Counted from the first letter of the stretch, positions 5,345-22,430 are shown. The stretch is DNA of 64,000 bases from an uncultured Alphaproteobacteria bacterium (GCA_902625365.1 CACOAX010000002.1:468-64467); one strand, 5' to 3'. Program-made: numbers and translations. Notes: generated from the letters alone by a model not told the origin.

Positions 5345-5962
5345 ATGAAACCTAAATATTGGAATAAAGGAAAACAATATTTATCAAATAAAGATAAAGT
5401 TTTGAAGAAGTTAATTCAAACTTATAAAAATGAATATTTAGATCAAAATTCTAATTATTTTCATTCATTAATTAATTCAATAATTGGTCAACAAATATCA
5501 GTATCAGCAGCTGATTCGATGAAAACTAAATTTTTTAAACTTAAAAGAAATATTACACCTCAAACTGTATCTAAATTACGTACTACAGATTTACGAAAAT
5601 GTGGTCTATCAAGGCAAAAAATTTTATATATAAGAAATATTTCTAAATTTTTTTTACAAAACAAGAACTTTATAAAAAATATTAATAAATATTCTGAAGA
5701 AGAAATTTATAATAATTTAATTGAAATTAAAGGAGTAGGGAATTGGACTATTCATATGTTTTTAATGTTTAGTTATGGAAGTTCAAATATTTTTCCAACA
5801 GGTGACTTAGGGTTTTTAAAAGCTATTTCAAAACTTTATAAAGTTAAACTTCCTGTAAGTGAAAGAAAACTTAAATTGCTTTACAAAAAATGGAGTCCGT
5901 ACAGTTCACAAGCTACATGGTATTTATGGAGATCATTAGACCCCATTCCAGTTAATTATTGA
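5345..5962 (+). CDS. HhH-GPD DNA glycosylase (DNA-3-methyladenine glycosylase II-like)
   Basis: 205 aa. The helix-hairpin-helix is LIEIKGVGNWTIHMFLMF followed by PTGDLG. Confidence 0.8.
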   Translation: MKPKYWNKGKQYLSNKDKVLKKLIQTYKNEYLDQNSNYFHSLINSIIGQQISVSAADSMKTKFFKLKRNITPQTVSKLRTTDLRKCGLSRQKILYIRNISKFFLQNKNFIKNINKYSEEEIYNNLIEIKGVGNWTIHMFLMFSYGSSNIFPTGDLGFLKAISKLYKVKLPVSERKLKLLYKKWSPYSSQATWYLWRSLDPIPVNY

Positions 5963-7394
5963 TATTTGCTCCTTGCTCTATCCAAACTTTTAATATCTCT
6001 CTTTCATTTTTTGTAATACCAGTTAGGTTATTCGGAGGCATAATTTCAGCATCAATAGCCTGTGCTTTGATTAATTTTATATTATTTACAATATCTTGAG
6101 CCGTGTCATATACAACTCCTTTTGGTGCCGCTTCAATACCTTCAAAAGTTGGATATTTGGCATGACATGTTCCACATCTGTATTTAATTATATTTTGTAC
6201 TTCATTGAAACTCACTAATTCTAAAGAAAGAGATGCATTTGCATCTTTTTTTTCAAATATTGAAAGACTGCTTAAAGTCATTAAAAAAAACATGATTAAA
6301 CCTGCTGAAGGTAAAATCCAAAATTTATATTGTTTTTTATTTCTTAAATTAAAGTAATGTCGAGTTAAAATGCCAGCTATCGATATAACAGCTAAAATTA
6401 ACCAATTATTTACTGCTCCATATGTAAAAGAAAAATGTGAGCTTATCATGATAAATAAAACTGGTAGTGTAAAATAATTATTATGTATTGATCTGTTTTT
6501 TGCTTCTAATGAAAGATTTAAATTTGGCTTTTGATTGTTTTCAGCTGATGAAACAAGATTTCTTTGTGCAGGAATAATGACTCTAAAAACATTAGCTGCC
6601 ATAATGGTACCAATAATCGCTCCAACATGTATGTATGCAGCTCTTGATCCATAAATTTGAGTCAAAAAATAACTTAATAATACAAATAATAAAAAACCAG
6701 TTGCAATCAAAGTTTGTTCATTATCTTTTAAAACATTTTTACAAAGATAATCATATAGAAGCCAAGATCCTATAAGTAAGAATATAGATATTAATATTGC
6801 TTGAAAGGGTGTTAATATAATACCGCTAGCTCCCAACATCATAGAACTTGCATTTAAATAATAAACTAAAATAAGTAATACAAAACCACTTATCCAAGTT
6901 GCATATGCTTCCCATTTAAACCAATGAAGAACTTTTGGAAGTTTTTTAGGAGGTCCTTTTAATTTTTCAATTCTATAAAACCCACCTGAATGAACAGACC
7001 ATAAATAACCGTCAAGGTGTTTAAAATCTGGATCATCTCTTTCAAGTCTACTATCCAGCCAATTAAAGTAAAATGATGTTCCAATCCACGCTACACCAAC
7101 AATTATATGAACCCATCTAACAATTAAATGTAACCACTCAGAATATACTGCAAATAAAGTTTCTGTTGGAACACCTAAATTATAAAAAGCTGCAGTAAAA
7201 GATATCACTATAGTTGTTGCAATTACAATATAGAGTCTTTGTTCTTTAGATTTTAAACCTGAAAATGCCCCAAGGATAATAAATAATAGTAAACCTAATA
7301 ATGCTGATGCTGGAAGTGATAAAAGTAAATTATGAAAAAAAGTTTGGAAGTCATAAGATTGAACTGGTGCAACAATTTTGAGAAATAATTCCAT
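5952..7394 (-). CDS. puuD: Membrane-bound urate hydroxylase, PuuD type (polytopic domain plus C-terminal cytochrome c)
   Basis: 480 aa, multi-TM, with a C-terminal CGTCH haem c motif encoded at 6162-6176 and a distal MPP. It is last in the xdh operon. Confidence 0.8.
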   Translation of the reverse strand: MELFLKIVAPVQSYDFQTFFHNLLLSLPASALLGLLLFIILGAFSGLKSKEQRLYIVIATTIVISFTAAFYNLGVPTETLFAVYSEWLHLIVRWVHIIVGVAWIGTSFYFNWLDSRLERDDPDFKHLDGYLWSVHSGGFYRIEKLKGPPKKLPKVLHWFKWEAYATWISGFVLLILVYYLNASSMMLGASGIILTPFQAILISIFLLIGSWLLYDYLCKNVLKDNEQTLIATGFLLFVLLSYFLTQIYGSRAAYIHVGAIIGTIMAANVFRVIIPAQRNLVSSAENNQKPNLNLSLEAKNRSIHNNYFTLPVLFIMISSHFSFTYGAVNNWLILAVISIAGILTRHYFNLRNKKQYKFWILPSAGLIMFFLMTLSSLSIFEKKDANASLSLELVSFNEVQNIIKYRCGTCHAKYPTFEGIEAAPKGVVYDTAQDIVNNIKLIKAQAIDAEIMPPNNLTGITKNEREILKVWIEQGANINN

Positions 7395-7395
7395 T

Positions 7396-7863
7396 TTAAT
7401 ATCTTATTTTATTTTCCTCTTTTTCCCAAATATTAAATGCTTTTATTGCTTCGTCACGTGATATTTGACTGATAGGTATTTTTCTTTCTTTAATTTCTAA
7501 TGATAGTTCATCATAAATAAACTTGTCATCAAATTTAATTTTTGCAGCATCCTCTCTAGAATTACCATAATATACTTTGTCTATATGTGACCAATATATC
7601 GCACTTAAGCACATAGGACACGGTTCGCAACTGGAATACAATTCACAACCTTCTAAGTTAAAGGTATTTAATTTTTGACATGCATTTCTAATAGCAACAA
7701 TTTCAGCATGAGCAGTAGGATCATTATTATATGTTACTCTATTTACTCCCTCTGCAATAATTTCATTTTCTTTTACAATTACACATCCAAAAGGGCCCCC
7801 ATTATGTTTGATATTATTAATTGACAGTAAAATAGCTCTTTTCATAAAATCTATATTTGTCAT
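7396..7863 (-). CDS. guaD: Guanine deaminase (cytidine-deaminase fold, GuaD type)
   Basis: 155 aa with HAEIVAIRNA and SSCEPCPMCLSAIYW...DAAKIKFDDKFIYDEL. This closely resembles my recollection of B. subtilis GuaD, and the gene lies in a purine catabolic context. Confidence 0.85.
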   Translation of the reverse strand: MTNIDFMKRAILLSINNIKHNGGPFGCVIVKENEIIAEGVNRVTYNNDPTAHAEIVAIRNACQKLNTFNLEGCELYSSCEPCPMCLSAIYWSHIDKVYYGNSREDAAKIKFDDKFIYDELSLEIKERKIPISQISRDEAIKAFNIWEKEENKIRY

Positions 7864-8690
7864 ATAACTTCTTTAATTTTATTATTTGATAAATGATTTA
7901 AGCTATTTTTTATTGATATTATTCTTGTAATTATTGAGAAAGCTATTTCATTCGGATCTTTTGAATTACCAATATCAATTCCAATCGGACACTCAATTTT
8001 CTCAACTATTGATTGATTGTGACCATTATCAATTAATCTTTTATAAAACCTTTTTTTCTTTGTAAGAGATCCAATTAAACCAACAAAAGTATTATTTTTT
8101 TTCAAAATTTCATTTAATATTTTTAAATCATAATCATGACTGTGAGTTAAGACTATAAAATAAGAATTATCTTCTAGTTTTGATACAATGTCCCAAGGTT
8201 TTTTCGAAAGCAAATAATTTATATCTTTGATATTTGTCATTTTTAAATAATCTTCTCTTGAATCAATCATAAAAGTATTAAAATTGATATTTTCTAATTT
8301 AGAAATTAACGCTTGACCAATATGCCCTGATCCAAAAATATATAAGTTAGGTTTAATATTATTAACAACATATTCATTTTTTAGCGCATCTTTGGAATTA
8401 TTATGTAAGCTTAATTTAACTTGTACGTATCCACCACAACATTGTCCAATTCCTGGCCCAAGCGGAATATTCATTACTTTATTTGCTATATTATTATCAA
8501 TTAATTTTCTCGCTTCATTGATAACTAAATATTCTAAGTTTCCGCCACCGATAGTTCCAAAAATAGTATCAGTTGAGATTAATATAATGTCATCTAAACT
8601 ATTAGGCGATGATCCTTTAACTTCAATAATTTTAGCCTTAACTATTTTACTATTAAAATTTATATTTTTACTTAATTTTTTAAGATACAT
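7860..8690 (-). CDS. xdhC: Xanthine dehydrogenase accessory/maturation protein XdhC
   Basis: 276 aa. It has an XdhC/CoxI-like N-terminus and a Rossmann-like IFGSGHIGQAL, and it lies directly after xdhB. Confidence 0.8.
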   Translation of the reverse strand: MYLKKLSKNINFNSKIVKAKIIEVKGSSPNSLDDIILISTDTIFGTIGGGNLEYLVINEARKLIDNNIANKVMNIPLGPGIGQCCGGYVQVKLSLHNNSKDALKNEYVVNNIKPNLYIFGSGHIGQALISKLENINFNTFMIDSREDYLKMTNIKDINYLLSKKPWDIVSKLEDNSYFIVLTHSHDYDLKILNEILKKNNTFVGLIGSLTKKKRFYKRLIDNGHNQSIVEKIECPIGIDIGNSKDPNEIAFSIITRIISIKNSLNHLSNNKIKEVI

Positions 8691-8691
8691 T

Positions 8692-10965
8692 TTAATGCAA
8701 ACTTTTTAATATATTTTCAGCAGTAGCAGGTGCAATTAAATTTTCAGAATTTTTTCCTTTATTGGCATTATATACTGCATCCTTTAATGCAATAAAACTT
8801 GAAATTGCTAGCATAAATGGTGGCTCTCCAACAGCTTTAGAGCGATTAATAACCTCTTCTTTATTAAAACCACGATCATATATTTCGACATTAAATTTAA
8901 ATGGTGTCTCACCTGCAGTTGGTATTTTATAAGTAGAAGGACTATGAGTTGTTAGAATTCCATTTGATTTCCAAGATACCTCTTCAGTTGTAAGCCAACC
9001 TAATCCCTGAATATAACCACCCTCAATTTGCCCTTTATCAATTCTTTTATTAATAGAATTGCCAACATCATGAATTATATCAACTTGAAGAATTTTATTT
9101 TCACCCGTTAATTTATCAATGATTACTTCAGTTACCGCTGCTCCATAAGTAAAATACAAGAATGGTCTTCCTTGAAGTGTTTTTGTATTTACATTAATTT
9201 TGTCAGTTTTATAGAAACCTGAAGATGACAATGGAATTCTATTTAAGTAAGCAGTATTTATCAATTCTTTAAAAGATATTTTTCTTTTATCAAAATAAAC
9301 AAAATTATTTTCATATTTTATTTTGCTATTTGTTTTAAAATAATCATAGATAAATTCATTTAGACCTGATTTGATATTATTTATAGCATTAACAATTGCT
9401 GCTCCATTTATATCAGTTGTAGCTGATGCGGCACTCGCTGATGTGTTAGGCACTTTTTCTGTATCCGTTGAAGAGATTTTTATATTTTCGTAATTAAGGC
9501 CAAATTCATTTGAAGCCACTAAAGCAAGTTTCGTCATCAATCCTTGACCCATTTCAATTCCTCCATGATTTAAATGAATGGATCCATCAGTGTAGATATG
9601 AACTAATGCACCACCTTGGTTTAAATGAGTAGTTGTAAATGATATTCCAAACTTTACAGGTGTTATTGCTATTCCTTTTTTTAGAACTTTATTTTTTTTG
9701 TTAAAATTATCAATTTCAACTTTTCTTTTTTTGTAATTAGATTTCTTAATTAGTTTATTAAAAATATCTTCAATCACATTGTCAGTAATTCTCATTCCAT
9801 AATGAGTAGTATTTTTAATTTTATCTTTATAAAAATTAATTTTTCTTATTTCACTTGCTTCCAGTTTTAATTTTTGAGCGATATTTTCAATTATATTTTC
9901 AATACAGAACATTCCTTGAGGTCCACCAAATCCACGAAAAGCAGTATTAGAAACAGTATTTGTTTTACATCTATACGAATTAATTTCTATATTCGGTATG
10001 TAGTATGCATTATCGATATGATAAATAGCTCTATCATTTATAGCTCCTGATAAATCTGGAGATATACCACATCTCGATGCCATCATTATCTTTAGAGCAA
10101 GTATTTCACCATTATTATTAAAACCTACTTCATAATCAAATAAAAAATCATGCCTTTTTCCAGTCATGATCATATCATCATCTCTATCAACTCTTAGTTT
10201 TACTGGTTTAGATAACTTTTTTGCTGCAATGCTTGTAATGGCGGCAAATAAAAAAGATTGTGTTTCTTTTCCACCAAAACCTCCACCAATTCTTCTTACG
10301 ATCACATGGATACTATTGTAATTTTGTTTTAGCACCTTACCAATAATTTGCTGTGTTTCTGATGGATGTTGTGTTGAAGAATAAACTAAAAAATTATTAT
10401 CTTCTTGTGGAATAGTCATTGCAATTTGACCTTCTAAATAAAAATGATCTTGACCCCCTGAATACAATTTACCCTTTAAATTGTTGTTAGATTTTTTAAA
10501 CCCATCTTTTATATTTCCCCTAGTTAGATGCTTCGGTTTTAAAACAAATGATTTTTTCTTTAATGCTTCTTCAATTGAAACTATCGGTTTAGATATTTTT
10601 AAGTCTATTTTTACTTTTAATGCAGCTTTTTTTGCTAAATTATTGGTCTTTGCTATAACTGCAAAAATTGGTTGCCCATAATATTCTATATTTTTTGAAG
10701 TAAATATTTTATCTCCCTTAAATATTGGCCCAACATCATTTATACCCTCAATGTCTTTTTCAGTAATAATGTCTACTACACCTTCTGAAGATAAAACATC
10801 TTTATAATCAATTTTTTTTATTACTCCTTTACTACAATTACTGTATCCAATTACTGCGTGAAGTAAATTTTTAGGCTCTGATATATCATCAGTATAAATT
10901 GCTTTTCCAGTAACATGTTTTACTGCACTTTCATGTTCAATATTTTTTGTAAATATTTTATCCAT
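8692..10965 (-). CDS. xdhB: Xanthine dehydrogenase, molybdopterin-binding subunit
   Basis: 757 aa with GGGFGGKE, AFRGFGGPQG and ELGQG-like GIEMGQGL motifs of the xanthine oxidase family. Confidence 0.93.
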   Translation of the reverse strand: MDKIFTKNIEHESAVKHVTGKAIYTDDISEPKNLLHAVIGYSNCSKGVIKKIDYKDVLSSEGVVDIITEKDIEGINDVGPIFKGDKIFTSKNIEYYGQPIFAVIAKTNNLAKKAALKVKIDLKISKPIVSIEEALKKKSFVLKPKHLTRGNIKDGFKKSNNNLKGKLYSGGQDHFYLEGQIAMTIPQEDNNFLVYSSTQHPSETQQIIGKVLKQNYNSIHVIVRRIGGGFGGKETQSFLFAAITSIAAKKLSKPVKLRVDRDDDMIMTGKRHDFLFDYEVGFNNNGEILALKIMMASRCGISPDLSGAINDRAIYHIDNAYYIPNIEINSYRCKTNTVSNTAFRGFGGPQGMFCIENIIENIAQKLKLEASEIRKINFYKDKIKNTTHYGMRITDNVIEDIFNKLIKKSNYKKRKVEIDNFNKKNKVLKKGIAITPVKFGISFTTTHLNQGGALVHIYTDGSIHLNHGGIEMGQGLMTKLALVASNEFGLNYENIKISSTDTEKVPNTSASAASATTDINGAAIVNAINNIKSGLNEFIYDYFKTNSKIKYENNFVYFDKRKISFKELINTAYLNRIPLSSSGFYKTDKINVNTKTLQGRPFLYFTYGAAVTEVIIDKLTGENKILQVDIIHDVGNSINKRIDKGQIEGGYIQGLGWLTTEEVSWKSNGILTTHSPSTYKIPTAGETPFKFNVEIYDRGFNKEEVINRSKAVGEPPFMLAISSFIALKDAVYNANKGKNSENLIAPATAENILKSLH

Positions 10966-12380
10966 TAATATAATGTTGATTTAATTTTATTATTTTCATT
11001 TAAAAACCTCTCTAAAAGGTTTTGACTAATTATAGTTCTATAATTTTTTGACGCTCTCATATCATCTATTGGATCAAATTCTTTTTTAATAATTTTCTTT
11101 GCTTCATTAATATTTTCTTCATTAAATATTTTATTCAATAAAAATTTTTGTGCCTTTTCAGCTATTTTTGGAGTTTCTGCTAAACCTCCACAAACAATTT
11201 TTATTTCTTTAATAATATTTTTTTCAATCCTAGCATTTATAGCCATGAAAACAGAACTTATGTCATCATCTATTCTTTTTGAAATTTTATAACATTTAAG
11301 AATATTTTTTTTATAAATGGGTATTATAATTTCTTTAATTATTTCATTAGGTTTTAATTTTGTTTTTCGATAGCTGAGAAAATAATTATCCAATAATAAA
11401 GTTTTTTTAACTTTTCCTTGAATAACAATTTTACTATTGAGTGCAATTAATACAGGCAAACTATCACCTATTGGAGATGCGCTTCCAATGTTACCTCCAA
11501 GAGAAGCAGTATTTCTTATTTGCTCAGATCCGTATCTTTCAAACATTTTAGCAAATGTTGGATAAATATTTTCTAAAATTGGTAAAATATCATTTATGGG
11601 AGTAGCGGATCCAATGTGTAAATTATTGTTTTTATTTTTAATATAATTTAAATCTTTATTTGATCCTAAATAAAAAATATTTTTTAAATCTTTTCTTTTT
11701 TTTGTTACTTCAAGAGCGAGATCTGTACCTCCGACTAGTAAATGTCCATTACTAATCTTTTGATAGTCTTCTATTAGAGAATTTAAATTATAATGGATGA
11801 AAAACTTAGAATCATTTTTTTTAATAACAATATCAGTTTTCTTAATTGATTTTAATAATCTGATAACTTTACTTTTTGAAAATTTATCACTTTTATAGCT
11901 ATACATATTTTTAATTGCATTTTTAATTGGAAGATAACCTGTGCATCTACATAAATTTCCAGAAAGAAATTTATCGATATTTTCTTCTGTTGGTTTAATT
12001 TTGTTTTCGTACATATTATACATTGACATAATAATACCAGGTGTACAAAAACCACATTGAGATCCATCACTATCAATCATTGATTGTTGAACAGGATGAA
12101 GTTTATTTTTTTTTATATGTTCAACCGTTATTAATTGCTTGCCATGTAGAGAATACAAAAAAGTAATACAAGTATTTATACTTTTATAAGAAATTTTATT
12201 CTCTTTTAATTCTCCTACAACTGCAGTACATGCTCCGCAATCACCAGATGCGCAACCTTCTTTTGTTCCAGTTAACTCATGATTATTTCGAAGATAATTT
12301 AAGACCGTTGTATTTGTATCTAAATCTTTGATAGATATTTTTTCTTCATTCAGGAGAAAATAGACATGTGCTATAGACAC
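10965..12380 (-). CDS. xdhA: Xanthine dehydrogenase, Fe-S/FAD-binding subunit
   Basis: 471 aa. Two 2Fe-2S motifs are present (CASGDCGACT, CGFCTPG...CRCTGY), followed by an FAD-binding domain (GGTDL). Confidence 0.93.
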   Translation of the reverse strand: MSIAHVYFLLNEEKISIKDLDTNTTVLNYLRNNHELTGTKEGCASGDCGACTAVVGELKENKISYKSINTCITFLYSLHGKQLITVEHIKKNKLHPVQQSMIDSDGSQCGFCTPGIIMSMYNMYENKIKPTEENIDKFLSGNLCRCTGYLPIKNAIKNMYSYKSDKFSKSKVIRLLKSIKKTDIVIKKNDSKFFIHYNLNSLIEDYQKISNGHLLVGGTDLALEVTKKRKDLKNIFYLGSNKDLNYIKNKNNNLHIGSATPINDILPILENIYPTFAKMFERYGSEQIRNTASLGGNIGSASPIGDSLPVLIALNSKIVIQGKVKKTLLLDNYFLSYRKTKLKPNEIIKEIIIPIYKKNILKCYKISKRIDDDISSVFMAINARIEKNIIKEIKIVCGGLAETPKIAEKAQKFLLNKIFNEENINEAKKIIKKEFDPIDDMRASKNYRTIISQNLLERFLNENNKIKSTLY

Positions 12381-12733
12381 TAGCTTCCTCTATATGTTGA
12401 ATAACTCCACGGGGTAATAAGAAGAGGTACATGGTAGTGCTCTTCTTTGTTAATTCCAAATCTAATTATTACGTCATCAAGAAAAAATGGTTCATCAAGA
12501 TTTGTAAATTCCTTAAAATAACTCCCGCAAAGAAATAGCAACTCATATTTTCCAAGTATAAAATTCTCTTTACTTAATATAGGCTCATCACATCTGCCAT
12601 CTTCATTGAGAATAAAATTTGAAATTTTAACTTTATTTTCACCATCAATTTTGAAAAGTGACCCTTTTATACCAGAACCAGGCTTACCATTATAGGTATC
12701 CAAAACATGAGTAGTTAAATATCCTTTAGACAT
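12380..12733 (-). CDS. uraH: 5-hydroxyisourate hydrolase (transthyretin-like)
   Basis: 117 aa. It starts LTTHVLD and ends with the signature YSTYRGS. Confidence 0.9.
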   Translation of the reverse strand: MSKGYLTTHVLDTYNGKPGSGIKGSLFKIDGENKVKISNFILNEDGRCDEPILSKENFILGKYELLFLCGSYFKEFTNLDEPFFLDDVIIRFGINKEEHYHVPLLITPWSYSTYRGS

Positions 12734-12785
12734 AATACTTATTCGTTTATACAGTATTTAGCTAAATATTAAATCAAGCATTTTT
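12734..12785. promoter_or_regulatory. 52-bp divergent control region between the uraH-xdh-guaD-puuD and puuE-uraD-alc-allA-ABC operons
   Basis: This is the only non-coding DNA between two divergent operons of one pathway. It contains the perfect 14-bp palindrome TATTTAGCTAAATA at 12755-12768. Confidence 0.4.
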
Positions 12786-13697
12786 ATGAAAGACGACAGA
12801 AATTATAAAGGCTACGGAAATAATGACTCTAACTTTTATTGGCCTAATAAATCAAAACTCGCTCTTCAATTTGTTCTAAATTATGAGGAAGGTGCTGAAA
12901 ATTCAATAATGAATGGTGACGAAGGATCAGAAACTTTTTTATCGGAAATAATTAATGCAAAGCAAATAAAAGGTGCCAGAAATATAAATATGGAATCAAT
13001 ATATGAGTATGGCTCAAGAAGGGGTTTTTGGAGAATACATAATGAGTTTGAAAAAAGAAAATTACCTTTAACAATATTTGGCGTTGGTATGGCTTTAGAA
13101 AAAAATCCTGATGTTTGTGAGCAAATAATTAAATCAAAGTATGAAGTAGCTAGCCATGGTTATCGATGGATAGACTATCAAAATATAACTGAGGAAGTTG
13201 AAAAAGAACATACTATAAAATGTAACAACATTATTAAAGATATATTTGGCTATTTTCCGTCTGGTTGGTATACTGGTAGAACAAGCCCAAATACAAGAAA
13301 TATAATTTTAGAAAATACAAATATTATTTACGATAGTGATTCCTATGCTGATGATTTACCCTACTGGATAAAAGTAAAAAATAAAAAACATCTAATTATT
13401 CCATACACTCTAGATAATAATGATATGAGATTTTCTACCTTACAAGGTTTTAACACAGGTGAGGATTTTTATAATTACTTAAAAAACTCATTTGATACAT
13501 TATACAGAGAAGCAAACGAGTTCAATAAACCAAAAATGATGAGTGTGGGTTTACATTGTCGATTAATAGCAAGACCTGGAAGATTTATGTCGTTGGTAAA
13601 ATTTTTGAATTATGTTTCTGGTTATAATGATATTTGGATATGCAAAAGAGAGGAAATTGCCAATTATTGGTATGAAAATTTTAGTGATGAAAATTGA
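12786..13697 (+). CDS. puuE: Allantoinase, PuuE type (polysaccharide deacetylase fold)
   Basis: 303 aa. It looks like a NodB/polysaccharide-deacetylase family member (FVLNYEEG, ASHGYRW) and is first in the ureide operon. Confidence 0.85.
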   Translation: MKDDRNYKGYGNNDSNFYWPNKSKLALQFVLNYEEGAENSIMNGDEGSETFLSEIINAKQIKGARNINMESIYEYGSRRGFWRIHNEFEKRKLPLTIFGVGMALEKNPDVCEQIIKSKYEVASHGYRWIDYQNITEEVEKEHTIKCNNIIKDIFGYFPSGWYTGRTSPNTRNIILENTNIIYDSDSYADDLPYWIKVKNKKHLIIPYTLDNNDMRFSTLQGFNTGEDFYNYLKNSFDTLYREANEFNKPKMMSVGLHCRLIARPGRFMSLVKFLNYVSGYNDIWICKREEIANYWYENFSDEN

Positions 13698-14196
13698 AGA
13701 TATTAATAATTATAACTCTGAGAAATTTATTGATTCTTTTAAAAATATTTATGAAGAATCTAAATTTATAACAGAATATGCTGATAAAAAGCGACCATTT
13801 AAAAATAAAAAAGAAATGATATCAATATTTTTAGAGTTGTTTGATAATTTAGATGAAGAAACTAAAGTAAATATAATTAAAAAACATCCTGATCTAGCCG
13901 ATAAAATAAAAATAAATAAAGGTTTGTCTGAATTATCTGATGAAGAACAAAGTAGATCTGGATTAAAAGATTGTTCAGAACAAGAATTTAACTTATTTAA
14001 AGATTTAAATTTAAAATTTAAAAACAAATTTAATATTCCATTTATTTTTGCAGTTAGAAATAAAAATAAAAATGAAATTATAACAGAGTTTAAAAGTAGA
14101 TTAGACAATAATGACTTAAACTTAGAAATAAAAACTTCAATTTCACAAGTAAAAGAAATTGCAAAATTAAGATTAACAGAATTAATTAATGAATAA
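13687..14196 (+). CDS. uraD: 2-oxo-4-hydroxy-4-carboxy-5-ureidoimidazoline (OHCU) decarboxylase
   Basis: I trimmed the track ORF to the ATG at 13687, which overlaps the puuE stop by 11 nt. Motifs are KKHPDLA and FIFAVRNKNKNEII..RL. Confidence 0.8.
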   Translation: MKIEDINNYNSEKFIDSFKNIYEESKFITEYADKKRPFKNKKEMISIFLELFDNLDEETKVNIIKKHPDLADKIKINKGLSELSDEEQSRSGLKDCSEQEFNLFKDLNLKFKNKFNIPFIFAVRNKNKNEIITEFKSRLDNNDLNLEIKTSISQVKEIAKLRLTELINE

Positions 14197-15166
14197 GAAA
14201 TATATTCAAAAAAATTATATAAACTTATGTAGTAAGGTTTTAGGTACAAAAATTCATAGTTTTTCTGATCAGTTTTTTGGATCAGCATCCAGATTGCTTA
14301 AAGAGGAACAACCAATTTTTAAAGAAGGAGTATACGATAAAAATGGGAAATGGATGGATGGATGGGAAACAAGAAGAAAAAGAATTGAAGGAAATGATTA
14401 TGTTACTATTAAATTAGGCCTTCCTGGTAAAATTAATTTTGCTGAAATAGACACAAGCTATTTTAATGGCAATCAACCTGAATACGCAAGCATTGATGCT
14501 TGTTATTTTGAAAAAAATAAATTTAATTGGGTAAATATTTTATCAAAAAGGAAACTTAATCCAAATTATCTTCATGGTTTTAAAACTCAACAGAATAATA
14601 AAGTTTTTAACTTCATAAGATTGAACATCTATCCAGATGGAGGAGTAGCAAGATTAAAATTATTAGGAAATTTAGATGTATCAAAATTAAAATTTCCAAA
14701 TAAAAAATTTGATTTACTTAGTATCCTTAACGGTTCAAAAATTGTGGCATGTAGTGATGAACATTTTGGAAGGGCAGAAAATTTATTACTTCCATTTAAA
14801 TCTAAAAATATGGGTAATGGTTGGGAAACTAAAAGAAGAAGAGGATCAGGATATGACTGGGTTATAATTAAACTTGGTAAACCTGGTTTAATTGAAAAGT
14901 TTAATATTGAAACTCATTATTTTAAAGGTAATTATCCTTCTCATTGTTCAGTACAAGCTCTTTATTCAATAAAAAATATAAATATAAACAAATTAATAAA
15001 TGAAAGCAAAAATTGGAAATATTTAATAAAAAATAAAAATCTTAAACCTAATTCATCATTAAAAATTAATTCAAATAAACAAATTAAAAAAATAAATTAT
15101 TTGAAGTTAAATATTTATCCTGACGGTGGTATTTCACGGATCAGGGCAATTGGAAAGTTTTTGTGA
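14189..15166 (+). CDS. alc: Allantoicase
   Basis: 325 aa with two internal repeats, each carrying GWET(R/K)RRR and a D/E-T-x-x-F-x-G-N core (IDTSYFNGN, IETHYFKGN). Confidence 0.9.
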   Translation: MNKKYIQKNYINLCSKVLGTKIHSFSDQFFGSASRLLKEEQPIFKEGVYDKNGKWMDGWETRRKRIEGNDYVTIKLGLPGKINFAEIDTSYFNGNQPEYASIDACYFEKNKFNWVNILSKRKLNPNYLHGFKTQQNNKVFNFIRLNIYPDGGVARLKLLGNLDVSKLKFPNKKFDLLSILNGSKIVACSDEHFGRAENLLLPFKSKNMGNGWETKRRRGSGYDWVIIKLGKPGLIEKFNIETHYFKGNYPSHCSVQALYSIKNININKLINESKNWKYLIKNKNLKPNSSLKINSNKQIKKINYLKLNIYPDGGISRIRAIGKFL

Positions 15167-15657
15167 ACTATAAAATAAAGAATATTAGTAAAGAGAATTT
15201 CAAAAATTATGGTGATTTAATTACAACATTTAATAAAAATTATGAAAGTATTAATAAAAATACAACTGATAGTTTTTTTGATTTAGCAAATATTCAAATA
15301 ATTGGTGATGACAAAAGATCTAGATTAAATATTTTTCAAGCTAAGAAAAGAAACTTTCCATTAAAAATTAACATGTTAGAAAATCACCCCTTTAGCTCTC
15401 AAGTATTTCTTCCATTTAATGCTACAGGGTTTTTAGTTTTAGTTGCTCCAATAGGTAACAAACCTAAAATTGATTTAATTGAAATATTCAAAGTAAGTGG
15501 TGGTGATGGTATAAATTTTAATCCCAAAGTATGGCATTTTCCTCTAATATCTCTTGAGAATGAAAAATATATTACCATTGATAAAAAAGATGCGGATAAT
15601 AATATTGAGATTTATAATTTTGAGCAATCAGAAATATTTGAATTAAATTATGAGTGA
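15163..15657 (+). CDS. allA: Ureidoglycolate lyase (urea-releasing, AllA family)
   Basis: 164 aa with a GTG start overlapping the alc stop (GTGA). Size is cupin-like, a NHPFSSQ.F.P motif is present, and the operon position fits. Confidence 0.8.
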   Translation: MNYKIKNISKENFKNYGDLITTFNKNYESINKNTTDSFFDLANIQIIGDDKRSRLNIFQAKKRNFPLKINMLENHPFSSQVFLPFNATGFLVLVAPIGNKPKIDLIEIFKVSGGDGINFNPKVWHFPLISLENEKYITIDKKDADNNIEIYNFEQSEIFELNYE

Positions 15658-17155
15658 TACAATATTAAATATAGAGAATATTACAAAATCTTTTCCAAGA
15701 GTAATAGCAAATAAAAAGGTTACCTTTGATATTAAAAAAAATGCAGTTCACGCAATTTTAGGAGAAAATGGAGCAGGGAAATCTACTTTGGTAAAAATTC
15801 TATATGGTCTCTTAGAACCAGATGAAGGAAATATTAAATTAAATAATAGGGATTTTAAAGTTAGTTCACCAGCAGAAGCAAGGAAACAAGGAATAGGAAT
15901 GGTATTTCAGCATTTTTCTTTATTTGATTCTTTATCAGTAAAAGAAAATTTAATTTTAGGAATTGATGAAAAGATGTCTTATTCAGATTTAGAAAATAAG
16001 CTAGAAAATATAAGCTCAAGATACAATCTTCCCTTAGATTTAGATGCTCCAATTACTGCTTTGTCAGCTGGAGAAAAGCAGCGTGTAGAAATAGTAAGAA
16101 TTTTATTACAAGACCCTCAGATACTTATTATGGATGAACCAACTTCAGTCTTAACACCACAAGAAGTTGAAAGTTTGTTTGTAACATTAAATGCACTCGT
16201 CAAAGAAGGTCGTACCATATTATATATCACTCATAAACTTGAAGAAGTAATATCAATATGTGATACAGTTACAATAATGAGAAGTGGTGAAATTATAGAC
16301 ACTTCAAGTACTTCAAATCAAACTGCAAAAACACTTGCAACAAAAATGCTAGGACAAAAACTAGATGATTTAAAAACTAATTACGGGCATATTAAAGATG
16401 AAGTTAACTTTGAAGTAAAAAATATTTCATGTGATTTTAATGATCCATTTTTAACAGACCTTAAAAATATTTCATTTCAAGTTAGAGTGGGTGAAATTTA
16501 TGGCATTGCTGGTGTTGCTGGTAATGGACAATCAGAATTAATGGACATTTTAACAGGGGAAAATATAAATATTAAATCTGGATCAATTACTTTTGATAAT
16601 AAAAAAATTGAAAAGTATGGACCACAAAAAAGAAGAGATTTATCTATTTCGTTTGTTCCCGAGAATAGATTAGGTCATAGTGCAGTTCCTGAGTTAAGTT
16701 TGTCTGAAAATATTCTTTTAAGTCAATTTCCAAAAAATAATTTTATTAAAAATGGTATAATATTGAAAAATAACGTTGATGATTTTGCTAATAATGTAAT
16801 TAATGAATTTAAAGTTATTACTCCTGGGAATGATGCTAAAGCATCAAGTTTGTCTGGAGGAAATTTACAAAAATATGTCATTGGTAGAGAAATTTCATCT
16901 AAGCCAAAAATATTAATTATTTCACATCCAACTTGGGGGATAGATGCCGGCGCTGAACATTCTATAAGAGAGTCTTTGATAGAATTATCGCAAAATGGAA
17001 CTTCTATAATTGTTATTTCTCAGGATTTAGATGAATTGATTGAAATTACTCATAAAATATCTGTTATTTATGATGGTAATTTATCCAAACCTTTTAAAAC
17101 TAGTGAAGTAGAAATTGAAAAATTAGGATTATTGATGGGTGGAAAAAATGAATAA
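15650..17155 (+). CDS. ABC transporter ATP-binding protein (duplicated ATPase, CUT2/BMP nucleoside type)
   Basis: 501 aa with Walker A GENGAGKST, signature LSAGEKQR, and a second signature LSGGNLQK. Confidence 0.92.
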   Translation: MSDTILNIENITKSFPRVIANKKVTFDIKKNAVHAILGENGAGKSTLVKILYGLLEPDEGNIKLNNRDFKVSSPAEARKQGIGMVFQHFSLFDSLSVKENLILGIDEKMSYSDLENKLENISSRYNLPLDLDAPITALSAGEKQRVEIVRILLQDPQILIMDEPTSVLTPQEVESLFVTLNALVKEGRTILYITHKLEEVISICDTVTIMRSGEIIDTSSTSNQTAKTLATKMLGQKLDDLKTNYGHIKDEVNFEVKNISCDFNDPFLTDLKNISFQVRVGEIYGIAGVAGNGQSELMDILTGENINIKSGSITFDNKKIEKYGPQKRRDLSISFVPENRLGHSAVPELSLSENILLSQFPKNNFIKNGIILKNNVDDFANNVINEFKVITPGNDAKASSLSGGNLQKYVIGREISSKPKILIISHPTWGIDAGAEHSIRESLIELSQNGTSIIVISQDLDELIEITHKISVIYDGNLSKPFKTSEVEIEKLGLLMGGKNE

Positions 17156-18221
17156 TTTATTTCCCTCTATAGTTTCTCGCTCACAGAGTTCAGGTCTAAT
17201 GAATTTTTTTATTCCCATAATATCTATTATTTTAACTTTAATTACTGGATCAATTATTTTTGTTCTCCTTGGTTTTGATCCAGTTTATGCATTGTATACG
17301 TTTTTTATTTCACCCATTTCTTCAACCTACGGTATTTCTGAATTATTTGTAAAAGCAACTCCTTTAGCCTTGATTGCAATTGGTCTTTCATATTGTTTTA
17401 AGAATAATATTTATAATATTGGAGCTGAAGGACAACTTACCATGGGTGCAATTTTTGGTGGAGGTATTGGAATATTATTTCACGATACAAATGCTTTCTG
17501 GTTGTTGCCATTAATGATTTTTGCAGGAGCAATTGGAGGAGCATTGTGGGGTTTAATACCTGCTATTTTAAAAACAAAATTTAATACAAATGAAATTTTA
17601 ACAAGCCTAATGATGGTTTATGTTGCTTTATTTATTTTAGATTATTTAGTAGTAGGGCCTTGGAAAGATCCATTTGGGTATAGCTTTCCTAAATCAAGAC
17701 CGTTCAGTGAATCAGGAAGAATGCCTTTATTATTTGATGGTTTAAGGGTGCACTTTGGATTAATTATAACGCTATTTTTAATTTTTGTATCTTGGTTTAT
17801 ATTTTCTAAAACTATTTTTGGCTTTCAATTGAAAGTATCTGGTTACAGTCCTAAAGCTGCTAGATATGCAGGTTTTAATCAAACAACTTTAGTTTTTTTT
17901 GCTTTTGCAATTTGTGGTGCTTTTGCAGGTATTGCAGGTTTAGCTGAAGTATCTGGCCCAATTGGATTATTATATAGAGATATTTCTCCAAATTATGGAT
18001 TTACTGCAATTATTGTCGCTTTCTTAGGTAGACTTCACCCAATTGGTATTATTTTTGCTTCTCTAGTTATCGCTCTTACCTACCTTGGTGCTGAGGACGC
18101 ACAATTGTTTTTACAAATACCTTCAGCAGTAGGTTTTATATTTCAAGGTTTGGTTTTATTTTATTTATTAGGTGCGGAATTACTAATTAACTATAAATTA
18201 ACTTACAAAAAATTATTATGA
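17148..18221 (+). CDS. ABC transporter permease (BMP/nucleoside-type)
   Basis: Polytopic. I prefer the ATG at 17148, an 8-nt overlap with the ATPase stop, over the GTG at 17139. Confidence 0.88.
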   Translation: MNNLFPSIVSRSQSSGLMNFFIPIISIILTLITGSIIFVLLGFDPVYALYTFFISPISSTYGISELFVKATPLALIAIGLSYCFKNNIYNIGAEGQLTMGAIFGGGIGILFHDTNAFWLLPLMIFAGAIGGALWGLIPAILKTKFNTNEILTSLMMVYVALFILDYLVVGPWKDPFGYSFPKSRPFSESGRMPLLFDGLRVHFGLIITLFLIFVSWFIFSKTIFGFQLKVSGYSPKAARYAGFNQTTLVFFAFAICGAFAGIAGLAEVSGPIGLLYRDISPNYGFTAIIVAFLGRLHPIGIIFASLVIALTYLGAEDAQLFLQIPSAVGFIFQGLVLFYLLGAELLINYKLTYKKLL

Positions 18222-19087
18222 ATTTAGATTTAATACTTGGAATTTTACAAATTGTTTTAATTGCAACAACACCTCTTGTTTTTGCTGGAATAGGTGAGTT
18301 AGTTGCAGAAAAATCTGGAGTATTAAATTTAGGTGTAGAAGGAATGATGTTAGTAGGGGCAGTGTCCGCTTTTACTATCTTAGTAATTACAGGAAGTTAT
18401 TTTTTAGCTTTTTTTGTATCTATATTATCTGGAATTATCATGTCTGGTTTATTTGCTTTTCTAGTTCTGTTTTTAATGTCAAATCAAATTGCTACAGGAT
18501 TAGCATTAACTATTTTTGGAATAGGTCTTAGTTCGATGCTTGGCAAACAATATATTGGAACACCAATTGATGGTCTGTCACCATGGTTTTTTGTTATATT
18601 TTCTTTCTTAATTGTTTTTTTGGTTAGTTATTTTTTTTATAAAACTAAAGCCGGTTTGATTTTAAGAGCAGTAGGGGAATCTCATAATTCTGCACATGCA
18701 TTAGGATATAGCGTTATTAAAATAAGATTTTTATCAATTTTATTTGGAGGTTCTATGTGTGCTCTTGCCGGATCATATATTTCAATTTGTTATGCCCCAA
18801 TGTGGCAAGAGGGAATGACAGCTGGACGTGGATGGATAGCGTTAGCTTTAGTTGTTTTTGCAACTTGGAAACCAGAAAGAGTGCTTATTGGAGCTTATAT
18901 ATTTGGAGGTGTTACTATTCTTCAAATGAATCTTCAGGCTTTAGGTTTAAGATTCCCTGGTCAATTTTTCAGCATGGCGCCATATGTTGCAACTATTATA
19001 GTTTTAGTGTTAATTTCTAGTAATAAATTAAGAATAAAACTTAGTGCACCTGCTTCGTTAACTATTCCTTTTTATAAAGGCAGATAA
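18218..19087 (+). CDS. ABC transporter permease (second subunit)
   Basis: 289 aa, polytopic, with an ATGA overlap with the preceding permease. Confidence 0.88.
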   Translation: MNLDLILGILQIVLIATTPLVFAGIGELVAEKSGVLNLGVEGMMLVGAVSAFTILVITGSYFLAFFVSILSGIIMSGLFAFLVLFLMSNQIATGLALTIFGIGLSSMLGKQYIGTPIDGLSPWFFVIFSFLIVFLVSYFFYKTKAGLILRAVGESHNSAHALGYSVIKIRFLSILFGGSMCALAGSYISICYAPMWQEGMTAGRGWIALALVVFATWKPERVLIGAYIFGGVTILQMNLQALGLRFPGQFFSMAPYVATIIVLVLISSNKLRIKLSAPASLTIPFYKGR

Positions 19088-19196
19088 ATAATATCCACTT
19101 TTTTTTTTCTATAATCATATACAATTATTGATCAAATCTATTTGTATATATTAAGTATATCTTTGAGTAATCGTTATATTAGCAGGTGAGGTTAAA

Positions 19197-20264
19197 ATGA
19201 TTAGAACAATAACTTATTTATCAACTTTTCTGGTATTTGCATTTGGCTCAGCATATGCAGACCCTAAAAAAGTTGGATTTATATATATAGGTCCTCCAGG
19301 AGATCACGGTTGGACGTATATGCATGATGTAGGTAGAAAATATATGGAAAGCCAACTTGGCGACTCTATTACTACTACTTATCTTGAAAATATTCCTGAA
19401 AATGCAGATGCAGTGAGAGCAATCCGAAAACTAGCTGATTCAGGACATGATTTAATATTTACTACGTCTTTCAACTATATGGATCAGACACATGAAGTAG
19501 CTAAGGATTTTCCCGATGTAAAATTTGAACATGCTACTGGATATATCCAAGCAGAAAATGTTGCTACTTATTCAGCTAGATTTTATGAAGGCAGAATGAT
19601 TGAAGGTCATATTGCTGGGCATATGACTGAAACCAATACTATTGGTTATATAGCTTCATTCCCTATCCCAGAAGTTGTTAGAGGAATAAATGCATTCTAT
19701 TTAGCAGCATCTAAAGTAAATCCAGATATAAAAATGAAAATTATTTGGGTATTTACTTGGTATGACCCAGGTAAAGAAGCTGATGCAGCAAATACATTAA
19801 TTAATCAAGGAGCTGACATAATTGTACAGCATACAGATACATACGCTCCTTGTCAGGCTGCTCAAAAAGCAGGTGTCTTTGCATTTGGTCAAGCTTCAAA
19901 TCAAGAAGAGTTCTGTCCTGATGCACATTTAACTTCAATTGAAGATATTTGGGGCCCTTATTATGCTGAAAGAGCAAAAGCTGTCGTTGATGGCACTTGG
20001 TCCTCAGGTGATACTTGGGATGGTATGGATAAAGGTATGGTTGTAATGTCACCATATAATACTAAACTTATGCCAGCAAGTCTAATTCAAGAAGCTGTAA
20101 ATATGGAAGTTGGAATTAAAGATGGAACTATCCATCCTTTCACAGGACCAATTTACAATCAAGCTGGTGAGCTTGTAGTTCCTGAAGGTGAAGTAGCGCC
20201 TGATGGAATGTTACTTGGAATGAACTTTTATGTTCAAGGAATTGACGGCGAAGTACCACAATAA
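19197..20264 (+). CDS. BMP-family (PnrA/Med-like) ABC substrate-binding protein, probably for a purine base or nucleoside
   Basis: 355 aa with a signal peptide and KVGFIYIGPPGDHGWTY typical of basic membrane protein family binding proteins. A strong RBS (AGGTGAGG) lies upstream. Confidence 0.9.
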   Translation: MIRTITYLSTFLVFAFGSAYADPKKVGFIYIGPPGDHGWTYMHDVGRKYMESQLGDSITTTYLENIPENADAVRAIRKLADSGHDLIFTTSFNYMDQTHEVAKDFPDVKFEHATGYIQAENVATYSARFYEGRMIEGHIAGHMTETNTIGYIASFPIPEVVRGINAFYLAASKVNPDIKMKIIWVFTWYDPGKEADAANTLINQGADIIVQHTDTYAPCQAAQKAGVFAFGQASNQEEFCPDAHLTSIEDIWGPYYAERAKAVVDGTWSSGDTWDGMDKGMVVMSPYNTKLMPASLIQEAVNMEVGIKDGTIHPFTGPIYNQAGELVVPEGEVAPDGMLLGMNFYVQGIDGEVPQ

Positions 20265-20280
20265 CTAATATTCTTAAAAT

Positions 20281-20310
20281 CCTCTCTCCTTAAAAGAGAG
20301 AGGTTTAATT
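20281..20310 (+). terminator. Intrinsic terminator after the binding-protein gene
   Basis: A perfect 8-bp stem CCTCTCTC (20281-20288) pairs with GAGAGAGG (20296-20303). The loop is 7 nt and a T-rich tail follows. Confidence 0.6.
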
Positions 20311-20331
20311 CTTAATTTCAAAGGAAGATTT

Positions 20332-20835
20332 ATGTCTGATTTACACATTAGTTGGGATGAATATAGAGCTAAAACAGAAGAATTAGCAAAACAAATTCAT
20401 AAAGATGGATGGAACTTTAATCAAGTTGTATGCATTGCAAAAGGAGGAATGAGAGTAGGGGATGTAATGGCAAGAATATTTGATGTCCCTCTAGCAATTC
20501 TTTCTGTTGAATCATATAAAGGTGATGGAGTAAAAAATAAAAGAGGTGCAATTACTTTTTCAAGAGATTTAGCAAAAACAAGTCCTAACATTGGATCAAA
20601 AGTTTTAATAGTAGATGATTTAGCAGACTCAGGAATTACACTAAAAAAAAGTATTGATTGGTTAAATCATACTTATGGTTTTTATATAGATGAACCAATA
20701 AGAACTGGAGTTTTGTTTTATAAATCAGTATCATCATTTAAACCAAATTATTATGTTGATTATTTAGAAGATTCTCCTTGGATACATATGCCTTATGAGG
20801 TTTATGAAACTATGAAACCTGAAGAGCTTGGTTAA
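20332..20835 (+). CDS. Purine phosphoribosyltransferase (Gpt-like)
   Basis: 167 aa with the PRPP loop VLIVDDLADSGITL and an overall layout like xanthine-guanine PRT. Confidence 0.8.
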   Translation: MSDLHISWDEYRAKTEELAKQIHKDGWNFNQVVCIAKGGMRVGDVMARIFDVPLAILSVESYKGDGVKNKRGAITFSRDLAKTSPNIGSKVLIVDDLADSGITLKKSIDWLNHTYGFYIDEPIRTGVLFYKSVSSFKPNYYVDYLEDSPWIHMPYEVYETMKPEELG

Positions 20836-21509
20836 AAAATTGAAGTAATTTCCTCAAACCTTTTCTTTTGTTTAGCAAATTTCGGAACTGTTGCATCCTC
20901 ATTTGGTAGCCCGACAATAAGCAAAACAAATGGTTTTTCATTACTAGGTCTTTTCAAAATTTTATTAAGAAATGTCATCGGACTTGGTGTGTGTGTTAAC
21001 ATTGCTAAACCAGAAAAATGTAAACAAGTAATTAATATACCAGTAGCTATACCCACAGACTCTTTTACATAATAATTTTTTATTTTTTTATTTTTTGAAA
21101 TTGAAAATTTTTTTTCAAATATAGCTATTAAATAAGGCGCATTTTCAATAAATTTTTTATTTTCATCAGTTCCTAAAGGAGTTAACGCATCTAACCACTC
21201 TTGGGGAGCTTTGTATTTGTAAAAATTTTCTTCTTCTTTTTCTGCTTCTATTCTAATCTTCTTTTTTACGGTTTTATTTTTTATTACTACAAAATGCCAT
21301 GGTTGAAGATTAGCCCCACTAGGAGCTGATCCTGCAGATAAGATTGCATTTTTTATAACATTTATATCGATTTTATCTTTTGAAAAATCACGTATGCTTC
21401 TTCTTTCTTTAATGTTATTATAAAAACTTTTTGAATTAATCCTCATATCTTTGATAGTTTGATTTGAAAATTTTAAATCTTCAGCTATGTATTTTTTAAC
21501 TATATGCAT
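20832..21509 (-). CDS. Flavin nitroreductase-superfamily protein of the iodotyrosine deiodinase (IYD) subclass
   Basis: 225 aa. RRSIRDF, SAGSAPSGANLQPWHFVVIKN, KIRIEAEKEEENFY and VGLPNEDATVP align closely with my recollection of animal and bacterial IYD. Confidence 0.8.
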   Translation of the reverse strand: MHIVKKYIAEDLKFSNQTIKDMRINSKSFYNNIKERRSIRDFSKDKIDINVIKNAILSAGSAPSGANLQPWHFVVIKNKTVKKKIRIEAEKEEENFYKYKAPQEWLDALTPLGTDENKKFIENAPYLIAIFEKKFSISKNKKIKNYYVKESVGIATGILITCLHFSGLAMLTHTPSPMTFLNKILKRPSNEKPFVLLIVGLPNEDATVPKFAKQKKRFEEITSIF

Positions 21510-22130: not shown

Positions 22131-22430
22131 ATGTCAAAAAAAATAACTTTTTCAGCTTTTGGTAGAGATTCATATTATCACAGAGACTGGTTCAAAAAAA
22201 ATGGTTTTAAATTTGATAGAAGTTCTAGAAAGTGGACTGTAGAAAATTTACCAATAGATAATGCTGAAGAATTCGCTAGTTATTGTAGAAAATACGGCTT
22301 AACATTTGAGCGATCTGATAGAATGATCACAGAATTTGATTATGCCGACTATCTCTGGGATGGAAGAAGGGATGAATTTATGAAACCTTCCGAAAATATT
22401 GAAATTCCACAACCTAAAAATAAAATCTAA
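22131..22430 (+). CDS. Hypothetical soluble protein (99 aa)
   Basis: The ORF has normal-looking, non-low-complexity composition rich in R, D, E, F and W. I recognise no family, but there is a KNGFKFD...RKWTV element. Confidence 0.55.
   Translation: MSKKITFSAFGRDSYYHRDWFKKNGFKFDRSSRKWTVENLPIDNAEEFASYCRKYGLTFERSDRMITEFDYADYLWDGRRDEFMKPSENIEIPQPKNKI

Follow-up and report, generated by a model that had tools for sequence, protein, structure and literature searches.

A conserved, syntenic locus for predicted purine uptake, salvage and aerobic catabolism in the AG-337-I02-like branch of marine Alphaproteobacteria

Purines are a significant labile currency of nitrogen and carbon that passes between picocyanobacteria and heterotrophs in the oligotrophic ocean. 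An operon for their catabolism, and the pathway that it encodes, have been described in SAR11, SAR116 and SAR86 by Braakman et al. (2025, Sci Adv, PMC11698098), who report that most of the nitrogen exits as urea and distinguish urease-positive nitrogen harvesters, linked to an ABC importer, from cells that excrete urea. Here we analyse the corresponding block of genes at positions 5952–20835 of a 64,000-nucleotide stretch from an uncultured alphaproteobacterium (GCA_902625365.1, CACOAX010000002.1:468-64467; hereafter, the window). In Data S1 of the same study AG-337-I02, a member of SAR11 clade V, is listed with every gene of the block, urease A, B and G and a urea ABC transporter, and HIMB59 is positive only for the ABC permease and phosphoribosyltransferase (PRT); the main text gives clade V no separate discussion (PMC11698098). 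Two genomic papers on AEGEAN-169 make no mention of purine, xanthine or urea (PMC10308909, PMC10734472), and a study of the South Pacific Gyre reports that one AEGEAN-169 clade uses urea and expresses Bmp transporters (PMC11366302). The cluster itself is already known, and the window adds nothing new in kind; the only increment over published work is the block's core, syntenic status in the AG-337-I02 family.

The composition of the block matches that of the SAR11, SAR116 and SAR86 operon, with PuuD, a tadA-like deaminase, the molybdenum and FAD subunits of xanthine dehydrogenase (XDH), hiuH, uraD, PuuE, alc, ugl, a purine ABC transporter and a phosphoribosyltransferase (PPRT), and the same products are expected, namely NADH, glyoxylate, urea and some ammonia (PMC11698098). 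The proteobacterial ureide pathway, as represented by Rhodobacter XDH, Agrobacterium PuuD and Pseudomonas PuuE, draws on the same enzyme families and is likewise aerobic and urea-releasing. Unlike that pathway, the block is built as two operons of overlapping genes fused to an importer, and it has no GntR, LysR or PucR regulator, no allantoin racemase and no permease for allantoin. For the binding protein of the importer, the nearest solved structures are a Brucella protein (PDB code: 3S99), deposited with adenine modelled in the pocket, and Pseudomonas AtzT (6PI5), which co-purifies with guanine and binds it with a dissociation constant of 110 nM, against 2.5 uM for adenine, and does not bind GTP (PMC6834077).

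Relatives of the binding protein identify the host as an AG-337-I02-like single amplified genome (SAG) of the AEGEAN-169/HIMB59 lineage, the SAR11 "clade V" of marine Alphaproteobacteria. Those at 93–99% identity are GORG single-cell genomes labelled uncultured Alphaproteobacteria, including "Pelagibacteraceae bacterium AG-337-I02", and MarineAlpha5_Bin9 is found among the more distant ones. The host assembly (G000) amounts to 1.03 Mb in 44 contigs and is 55% complete. Comparisons were made within a family sample of 116 genomes, many of them incomplete, labelled G000 (own) to G115. Protein families were assigned by Pfam gathering scores and NCBIfam equivalog cut-offs, and RNAs by Rfam.

The 15 genes of the block form two compact operons that diverge from a gap of 52 bp. 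On the minus strand the order is hiuH-xdhA-xdhB-xdhC-guaD-puuD; on the plus strand puuE-uraD-alc-allA is followed by an ABC ATPase and two permeases and then, with separate signals, by a Bmp binding protein and a phosphoribosyltransferase. The features are as follows.

5952..7394, minus strand: puuD, membrane urate oxidase with C-terminal cytochrome c domain (PF06181, 9e-113; CGTCH)
7396..7863, minus strand: guaD, predicted guanine deaminase of the CDA fold, 155 aa (1WKQ/1TIY, 1e-46; PF00383)
7860..8690, minus strand: xdhC, XDH maturation factor (TIGR02964, 227 bits, cut-off 161.6)
8692..10965, minus strand: xdhB, XDH Mo-pterin subunit (TIGR02965, 1060.3 bits, cut-off 849.5)
10965..12380, minus strand: xdhA, XDH 2Fe-2S/FAD subunit (TIGR02963, 523.8 bits, cut-off 467)
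12380..12733, minus strand: hiuH, 5-hydroxyisourate hydrolase (TIGR02962, 115.9 bits, cut-off 87.45)
12734..12785, no strand: putative divergent promoter region, 52 bp, with a conserved 27-bp core (conservation across genera)
12786..13697, plus strand: puuE, metal-independent allantoinase (TIGR03212, 436.6 bits, cut-off 424.6)
13687..14196, plus strand: uraD, 2-oxo-4-hydroxy-4-carboxy-5-ureidoimidazoline (OHCU) decarboxylase, 169 aa (TIGR03164, 138.8 bits, cut-off 96.25)
14189..15166, plus strand: alc, urea-releasing allantoicase (TIGR02961, 357.1 bits, cut-off 277.9)
15163..15657, plus strand: allA, probable urea-releasing ureidoglycolate lyase (PF04115, 4.8e-36)
15650..17155, plus strand: ABC ATPase with two nucleotide-binding domains (PF00005, matched twice)
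17139..18221 and 18218..19087, plus strand: two ABC permeases (PF02653 on both)
19197..20264, plus strand: periplasmic Bmp-family protein, predicted to bind purine bases, with Sec signal peptide (PF02608; 3S99, 6PI5)
20281..20303, plus strand: putative hairpin terminator or attenuator (8-pair stem and T-rich tail)
20332..20835, plus strand: type I purine phosphoribosyltransferase, putatively for salvage (PF00156)

The genes for the three XDH components abut or share 1 nt, and neighbours on the plus strand overlap by 4–17 nt into the ABC importer. A spacer of 109 bp precedes the binding-protein gene, and 67 bp separate that gene from the phosphoribosyltransferase gene. At the other end of the block the 3' end of puuD overlaps a convergent HhH-GPD gene by 11 nt. 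The start of uraD is most likely the in-frame ATG at 13687, which overlaps the puuE stop, and not position 13612; PF09349 spans residues 7–163 of the predicted 169-residue form. An initial annotation made from the DNA alone had proposed the two divergent operons with their 52-bp gap, the run of overlapping stops and starts into the importer and the assignment of each catabolic step; all 15 genes and the overlaps are present, and Pfam and NCBIfam family matches bear out the assignments.

Pfam backs every assignment in the block, and the NCBIfam equivalog cut-offs are exceeded by xdhA, xdhB, xdhC, hiuH, puuE, uraD and alc. All three XDH components thereby lie above their cut-offs in adjacent genes, and moaA, for synthesis of the molybdenum cofactor, was found in the host genome. 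PuuD carries PF06181 (Urate_ox_N) over residues 84–373 and a CGTCH haem-c motif near its C terminus, with MPP downstream of the motif in the translation. The guanine deaminase reaches the cut-off of no NCBIfam model; it aligns over its full length (residues 3–155, E 1e-46) with GuaD of B. subtilis (1WKQ), and the alignment keeps the HAE and CEPCPMC motifs, the aspartate of FDD and the C-terminal Tyr. In the B. subtilis enzyme the C-terminal segment and terminal Tyr complete the active site of the neighbouring subunit. The likeness, which includes this segment, points to an enzyme of the B. subtilis type (1WKQ/1TIY) and not to the GuaD found in E. coli and mammals, which is of the amidohydrolase type. 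The allA product scores 124.3 with PF04115, where the gathering score is 23, and stays below the cut-offs of the best NCBIfam ureidoglycolate-lyase model (135.4 against 230) and of a subfamily model (108.4 against 160). The block is intact, real and ordinary, and the assignment of the pathway is correct.

We propose, with a probability of about 0.8, that the block serves purine uptake, salvage and aerobic catabolism in this AG-337-I02-like bacterium and that it mainly harvests nitrogen. A periplasmic Bmp-type protein would take free purine bases and pass them to the ABC importer, and the phosphoribosyltransferase could salvage bases to nucleotides. GuaD would convert guanine to xanthine with release of one NH3, and XdhAB, matured by XdhC, would oxidize hypoxanthine and xanthine to urate, which the membrane cytochrome-c oxidase PuuD would turn into 5-hydroxyisourate. 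HiuH and UraD would then yield (S)-allantoin, PuuE allantoate, and allantoicase with ureidoglycolate lyase two urea and one glyoxylate. In this lineage a urease encoded about 113 kb away most likely hydrolyses that urea, which is what would make nitrogen the main harvest. Transcription of both operons would start from the 52-bp bidirectional promoter, and the binding-protein gene would have its own strong ribosome-binding site and terminator hairpin. Alc and AllA together release two urea per purine ring, and GuaD frees the exocyclic amino nitrogen of guanine as ammonia. The route by way of Alc and AllA had been recognized in the initial annotation and is supported; its further claim that all nitrogen leaves as urea holds for the ring nitrogens, which emerge as two urea, and not for the amino nitrogen of guanine.

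Several observations weigh against this proposal. The products of allA and of the phosphoribosyltransferase gene both fall under the NCBIfam cut-offs. As to which purine the binding protein prefers, two asparagines of the AtzT pocket, Asn218 and Asn220, are His212 and Asp214 in it, as in 3S99. Neither ureC nor urea carboxylase nor urtA was found in the 55%-complete host assembly. Finally, with regard to a sink for glyoxylate, a search of the host assembly for malate synthase found none, and neither malate synthase nor glyoxylate carboligase scores above cut-off in the three nearest high-quality relatives (G080, G039 and G091); malate synthase G is present in two more distant congeners (G033 and G002). 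This pattern favours a nitrogen-harvesting over a carbon-harvesting role.

That a urease would be needed elsewhere in the genome had been anticipated, and this is supported. The host assembly yielded no ureC or urea carboxylase. Of the 51 other genomes in which the full block is assembled, 39 have ureC above cut-off, about as their completeness predicts. In the family as a whole, ureC lies above cut-off in 66 of the 116 genomes (57%). One close relative, G039, encodes ureA, ureB, ureC and ureG, together with two open reading frames (ORFs) that occupy the ureE and ureF positions, at 132–136 kb of a contig (G039:C1) that also carries the block, 113 kb away. Contig C2 of the host is collinear with G039:C1 at 93–95% identity, a match that two small contigs, C32 and C15, continue as far as 110 kb; no DNA of the host assembly matches G039:C1 from 110 to 363 kb, the urease region included. 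The flanks of the urease island could not be used to settle the matter in the host, because the whole region is unassembled, and candidates for urea carboxylase in its assembly proved to be generic biotin carboxylases below cut-off. Within the collinear part, about 8.5 kb of the relative (G039:C1:94200-102755) is absent at a clean junction in the host (G000:C15:6707-6718), a small variable island in collinear surroundings.

The same pathway could also run in a cell that has no urease, where purines would supply reducing power through XDH and PuuD, glyoxylate and the single ammonia from GuaD, and the urea would be excreted to neighbours. The failure to find ureC, urtA or urea carboxylase in the host assembly is what such a cell would show; that assembly is, however, 55% complete and without all DNA matching the urease-bearing 110–363 kb of G039:C1. 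Urease is common but not universal in the family. Five distant block carriers, congeners and members of other genera that are 84–91% complete (G102, G068, G005, G001 and G107), are without ureC, and set against them is the presence of ureC in 39 of 51 relatives with the full block, about their mean completeness. A close congener, G092, has part of the urease-upstream flank inside a 462-kb contig (G092:C1:386000-406000), but neither the DDAH-YczE-urease stretch nor its downstream flank turned up, and the urease island may truly be absent there. An energy- and carbon-harvesting mode has been argued for most SAR11, and the same study ties the ATP-driven ABC importer, the type encoded here, to nitrogen harvesting (PMC11698098). 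The standard routes of carbon harvest are moreover missing from the nearest high-quality relatives, which have neither malate synthase nor glyoxylate carboligase. On this balance a urease-less host is unlikely, and the presence of urease in the cell is favoured at roughly three to one.

The substrate of the importer bears on the entry to the pathway. The binding protein has a predicted Sec-type signal peptide, MIRTITYLSTFLVFAFGSAYA, cleaved before D, with no lipobox. Its similarity to 3S99 (E 9e-127) and AtzT (E 2e-105) covers nearly the full length, from residue 16 or 17 to residue 355. When the ligand contacts of AtzT are mapped on it, the aromatic sandwich (W39 and W188), Ser91-Phe92 and Glu159 are kept, contacts that it shares with both solved proteins. 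Similarity and retained contacts together argue for membership of the Bmp subgroup that binds free purines. The best reading is that the transporter carries free purine bases and not nucleosides, since its nearest solved homologues bind bases and the nucleoside-binding Bmp structures match far more weakly (E 1e-6 to 1e-16); it also fits with the enzymes of the block, which all act on bases.

Import of purine nucleosides by a system of the PnrA/BmpD type, or of another heterocycle, with an unlinked nucleosidase or phosphorylase feeding the enzymes, has some points in its favour. The Pfam name of the binding-protein family is PnrA-like, a field study of AEGEAN-169 labels its Bmp transporters purine-nucleoside systems (PMC11366302), and the ATPase and permeases best match models of a putative vitamin-B6 transporter, below cut-off. 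The two closest solved homologues nevertheless hold free adenine or guanine, with no binding of GTP by AtzT, and the weak similarity to the nucleoside-binding structures tells the same way. The block contains no gene for a nucleosidase or phosphorylase, and GuaD, XDH and the phosphoribosyltransferase act on free bases. We regard nucleoside or other import as improbable, and free-base import remains the preferred reading.

The last gene of the block had been described as Gpt-like, which stands only in the generic sense of a phosphoribosyltransferase of PF00156, the one model passed; a specific xanthine phosphoribosyltransferase (XPRT) is weakly supported. The score is 50.8 bits with the XPRT model NF006613, for which the cut-off is 138, and 43.4 with the HGPRT model TIGR01203, for which it is 150. 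Its best solved match is an archaeal purine phosphoribosyltransferase (4TRB, 1e-8), with a further weak similarity to 1VDM, and the protein is identified as a purine phosphoribosyltransferase only generically, from its sequence.

Conservation of the site was assessed in the 54 genomes, the host included, in which both flanking genes (HhH-GPD and nitroreductase) are assembled on one contig. In 52 of these the flanks lie about 15.5 kb apart and enclose the same 15 genes in the same order, allantoicase among them in every case. Five other genera likewise carry the block in full, with gene order and location unchanged and protein identities down to 40–65%. In a sixth genus (G115) only the deaminase gene is missing from it, and a seventh (G114) has the xdh half or more. 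The block is a conserved, syntenic core locus of the family, whose catabolic half has rarely been lost or replaced. The initial annotation had viewed it as an accessory nitrogen-acquisition module, a view that it tied to the block not being universally conserved; with near-universal occurrence, at 52 of 54 sites and in other genera, that view is given up.

In the two remaining genomes (G022 and G095) the flanks are 5.3 kb apart and enclose only the ATPase, the permeases, the binding protein and the phosphoribosyltransferase. The short form accounts for one of the 80 loci recovered by way of the binding protein. The ATPases of the two genomes represent a distinct allele, 92% identical to each other and no more than 70% to the other ATPases of the family. 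Along the short locus (G022:C13:3000-11000 and G095:C4:2500-10500) identity to the window is 68% for the ATPase, 80% and 86% for the permeases and 94% for the Bmp protein, a rise that would fit a mosaic or recombinant allele better than a recent deletion. In the genome without the deaminase gene, that of MarineAlpha5_Bin9, no such gene lies between xdhC and puuD (G115:C18:36000-52500).

Allantoicase was detected in 81 of the 116 family genomes and in nine of the 11 high-quality ones, near the expectation from incompleteness alone. These counts by themselves were rejected as evidence of an accessory block, as nine apparently negative genomes (G038, G046, G051, G066, G009, G010, G100, G109 and G114) all carry pieces of it that break off at contig ends or at chimeric junctions. 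Single-cell assemblies that break within the block or end in inverted, chimeric junctions, resembling artefacts of multiple displacement amplification, can mimic the absence of genes; G046:C30:1-600, the end of G066:C20 and G000:C15 are examples. The chimeras include an xdhC/xdhB fragment that meets the deaminase gene head to head, a piece of allantoicase fused behind xdhB and the duplicated, inverted end of C15.

That the block might be a horizontally mobile accessory island is very improbable: the ten catabolic genes absent from the same site in G022 and G095, the deaminase gene absent from one genome of another genus in the family (G115) and an operon carried by only about 18–22% of SAR11 proper genomes (PMC11698098) would speak for it, but the flanks and order are constant at 52 of 54 sites and in other genera, protein divergence tracks that of the flanks, the GC content equals that of the surroundings (about 27% across the whole window), no integrase, tRNA or repeat boundary is seen among the flanking ORFs, and the remaining absences that were inspected are contig breaks or chimeric ends.

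A scan of the block, the three genes upstream (back to aspS, 2505) and the five downstream (to 24814) yielded no transcription-factor domain, in agreement with the initial annotation, and no riboswitch or other known RNA matched in Rfam, either at the gathering score or at E<=1. Within the 52-bp spacer lies a 27-bp core, TTATACAGTATTT-N4-AAATATTAAAT, which is constant in genera whose flanking proteins have diverged to 60–70% identity. The core holds a TATTT-N4-AAATA dyad of which the four central bases are variable. A perfect 14-bp palindrome was considered as a conserved operator and rejected, as its central AGCT varies (AACT, AGGT, GATT, ATTT and others) and the arms alone are conserved. The outer parts of the spacer are boxes resembling -10 elements, TATAAA/TATAAT on the minus strand and TATTAA on the plus strand, at about 13–15 nt from each ATG; from these positions we infer a compact bidirectional region of mutually overlapping divergent promoters with very short leaders. 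A scan with the sigma-70 consensus was uninformative in DNA of 27% GC, with 86 matches where 108 were expected.

The core could tentatively be read as an operator through which an unlinked regulator, possibly one that responds to nitrogen or purines, controls the two operons jointly. A search for a regulon found no convincing second copy of the spacer motif in the host assembly. Were such an operator present, it would provide a joint switch for both operons in a genome that encodes very few transcription factors. Ahead of the binding-protein gene, the 109-bp spacer shows no stronger folding than shuffled sequences do (z = +1.6) and carries a conserved Shine-Dalgarno sequence, AGGTGAGG, for that gene. 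Downstream of the gene, the stem of the hairpin at 20281–20303 is preserved in relatives by changes on both arms. A strong ribosome-binding site of its own and a terminator hairpin are the usual arrangement for over-expression of a binding protein.

Two neighbouring genes deserve mention. A gene of the nitroreductase fold (window 20832-21509) is convergent with the phosphoribosyltransferase gene and overlaps it by 4 nt; it is weakly BluB-like, below cut-off, keeps its position in most genomes of the family and has no family match that ties it to the purine pathway. Further downstream, an ORF of 99 aa (window 22131-22430) has no Pfam match, even at E<=1, and in relatives always lies between a rhodanese gene and the second EamA transporter gene, at 71–99% identity.

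The standing of the locus differs between this family and SAR11 proper, where the catabolic genes are found in about 18–22% of genomes and urease in about 5% (PMC11698098); here the block is close to universal, and 57% of genomes, themselves incomplete, have ureC. In the AG-337-I02 branch the whole predicted pathway from uptake to urea is fixed, syntenic and core, and it is usually accompanied by urease, in contrast to its patchy occurrence in SAR11 proper. This would mark the lineage as a consistent consumer of purine nitrogen, and it could guide the reading of metatranscriptomes and the design of isotope experiments.

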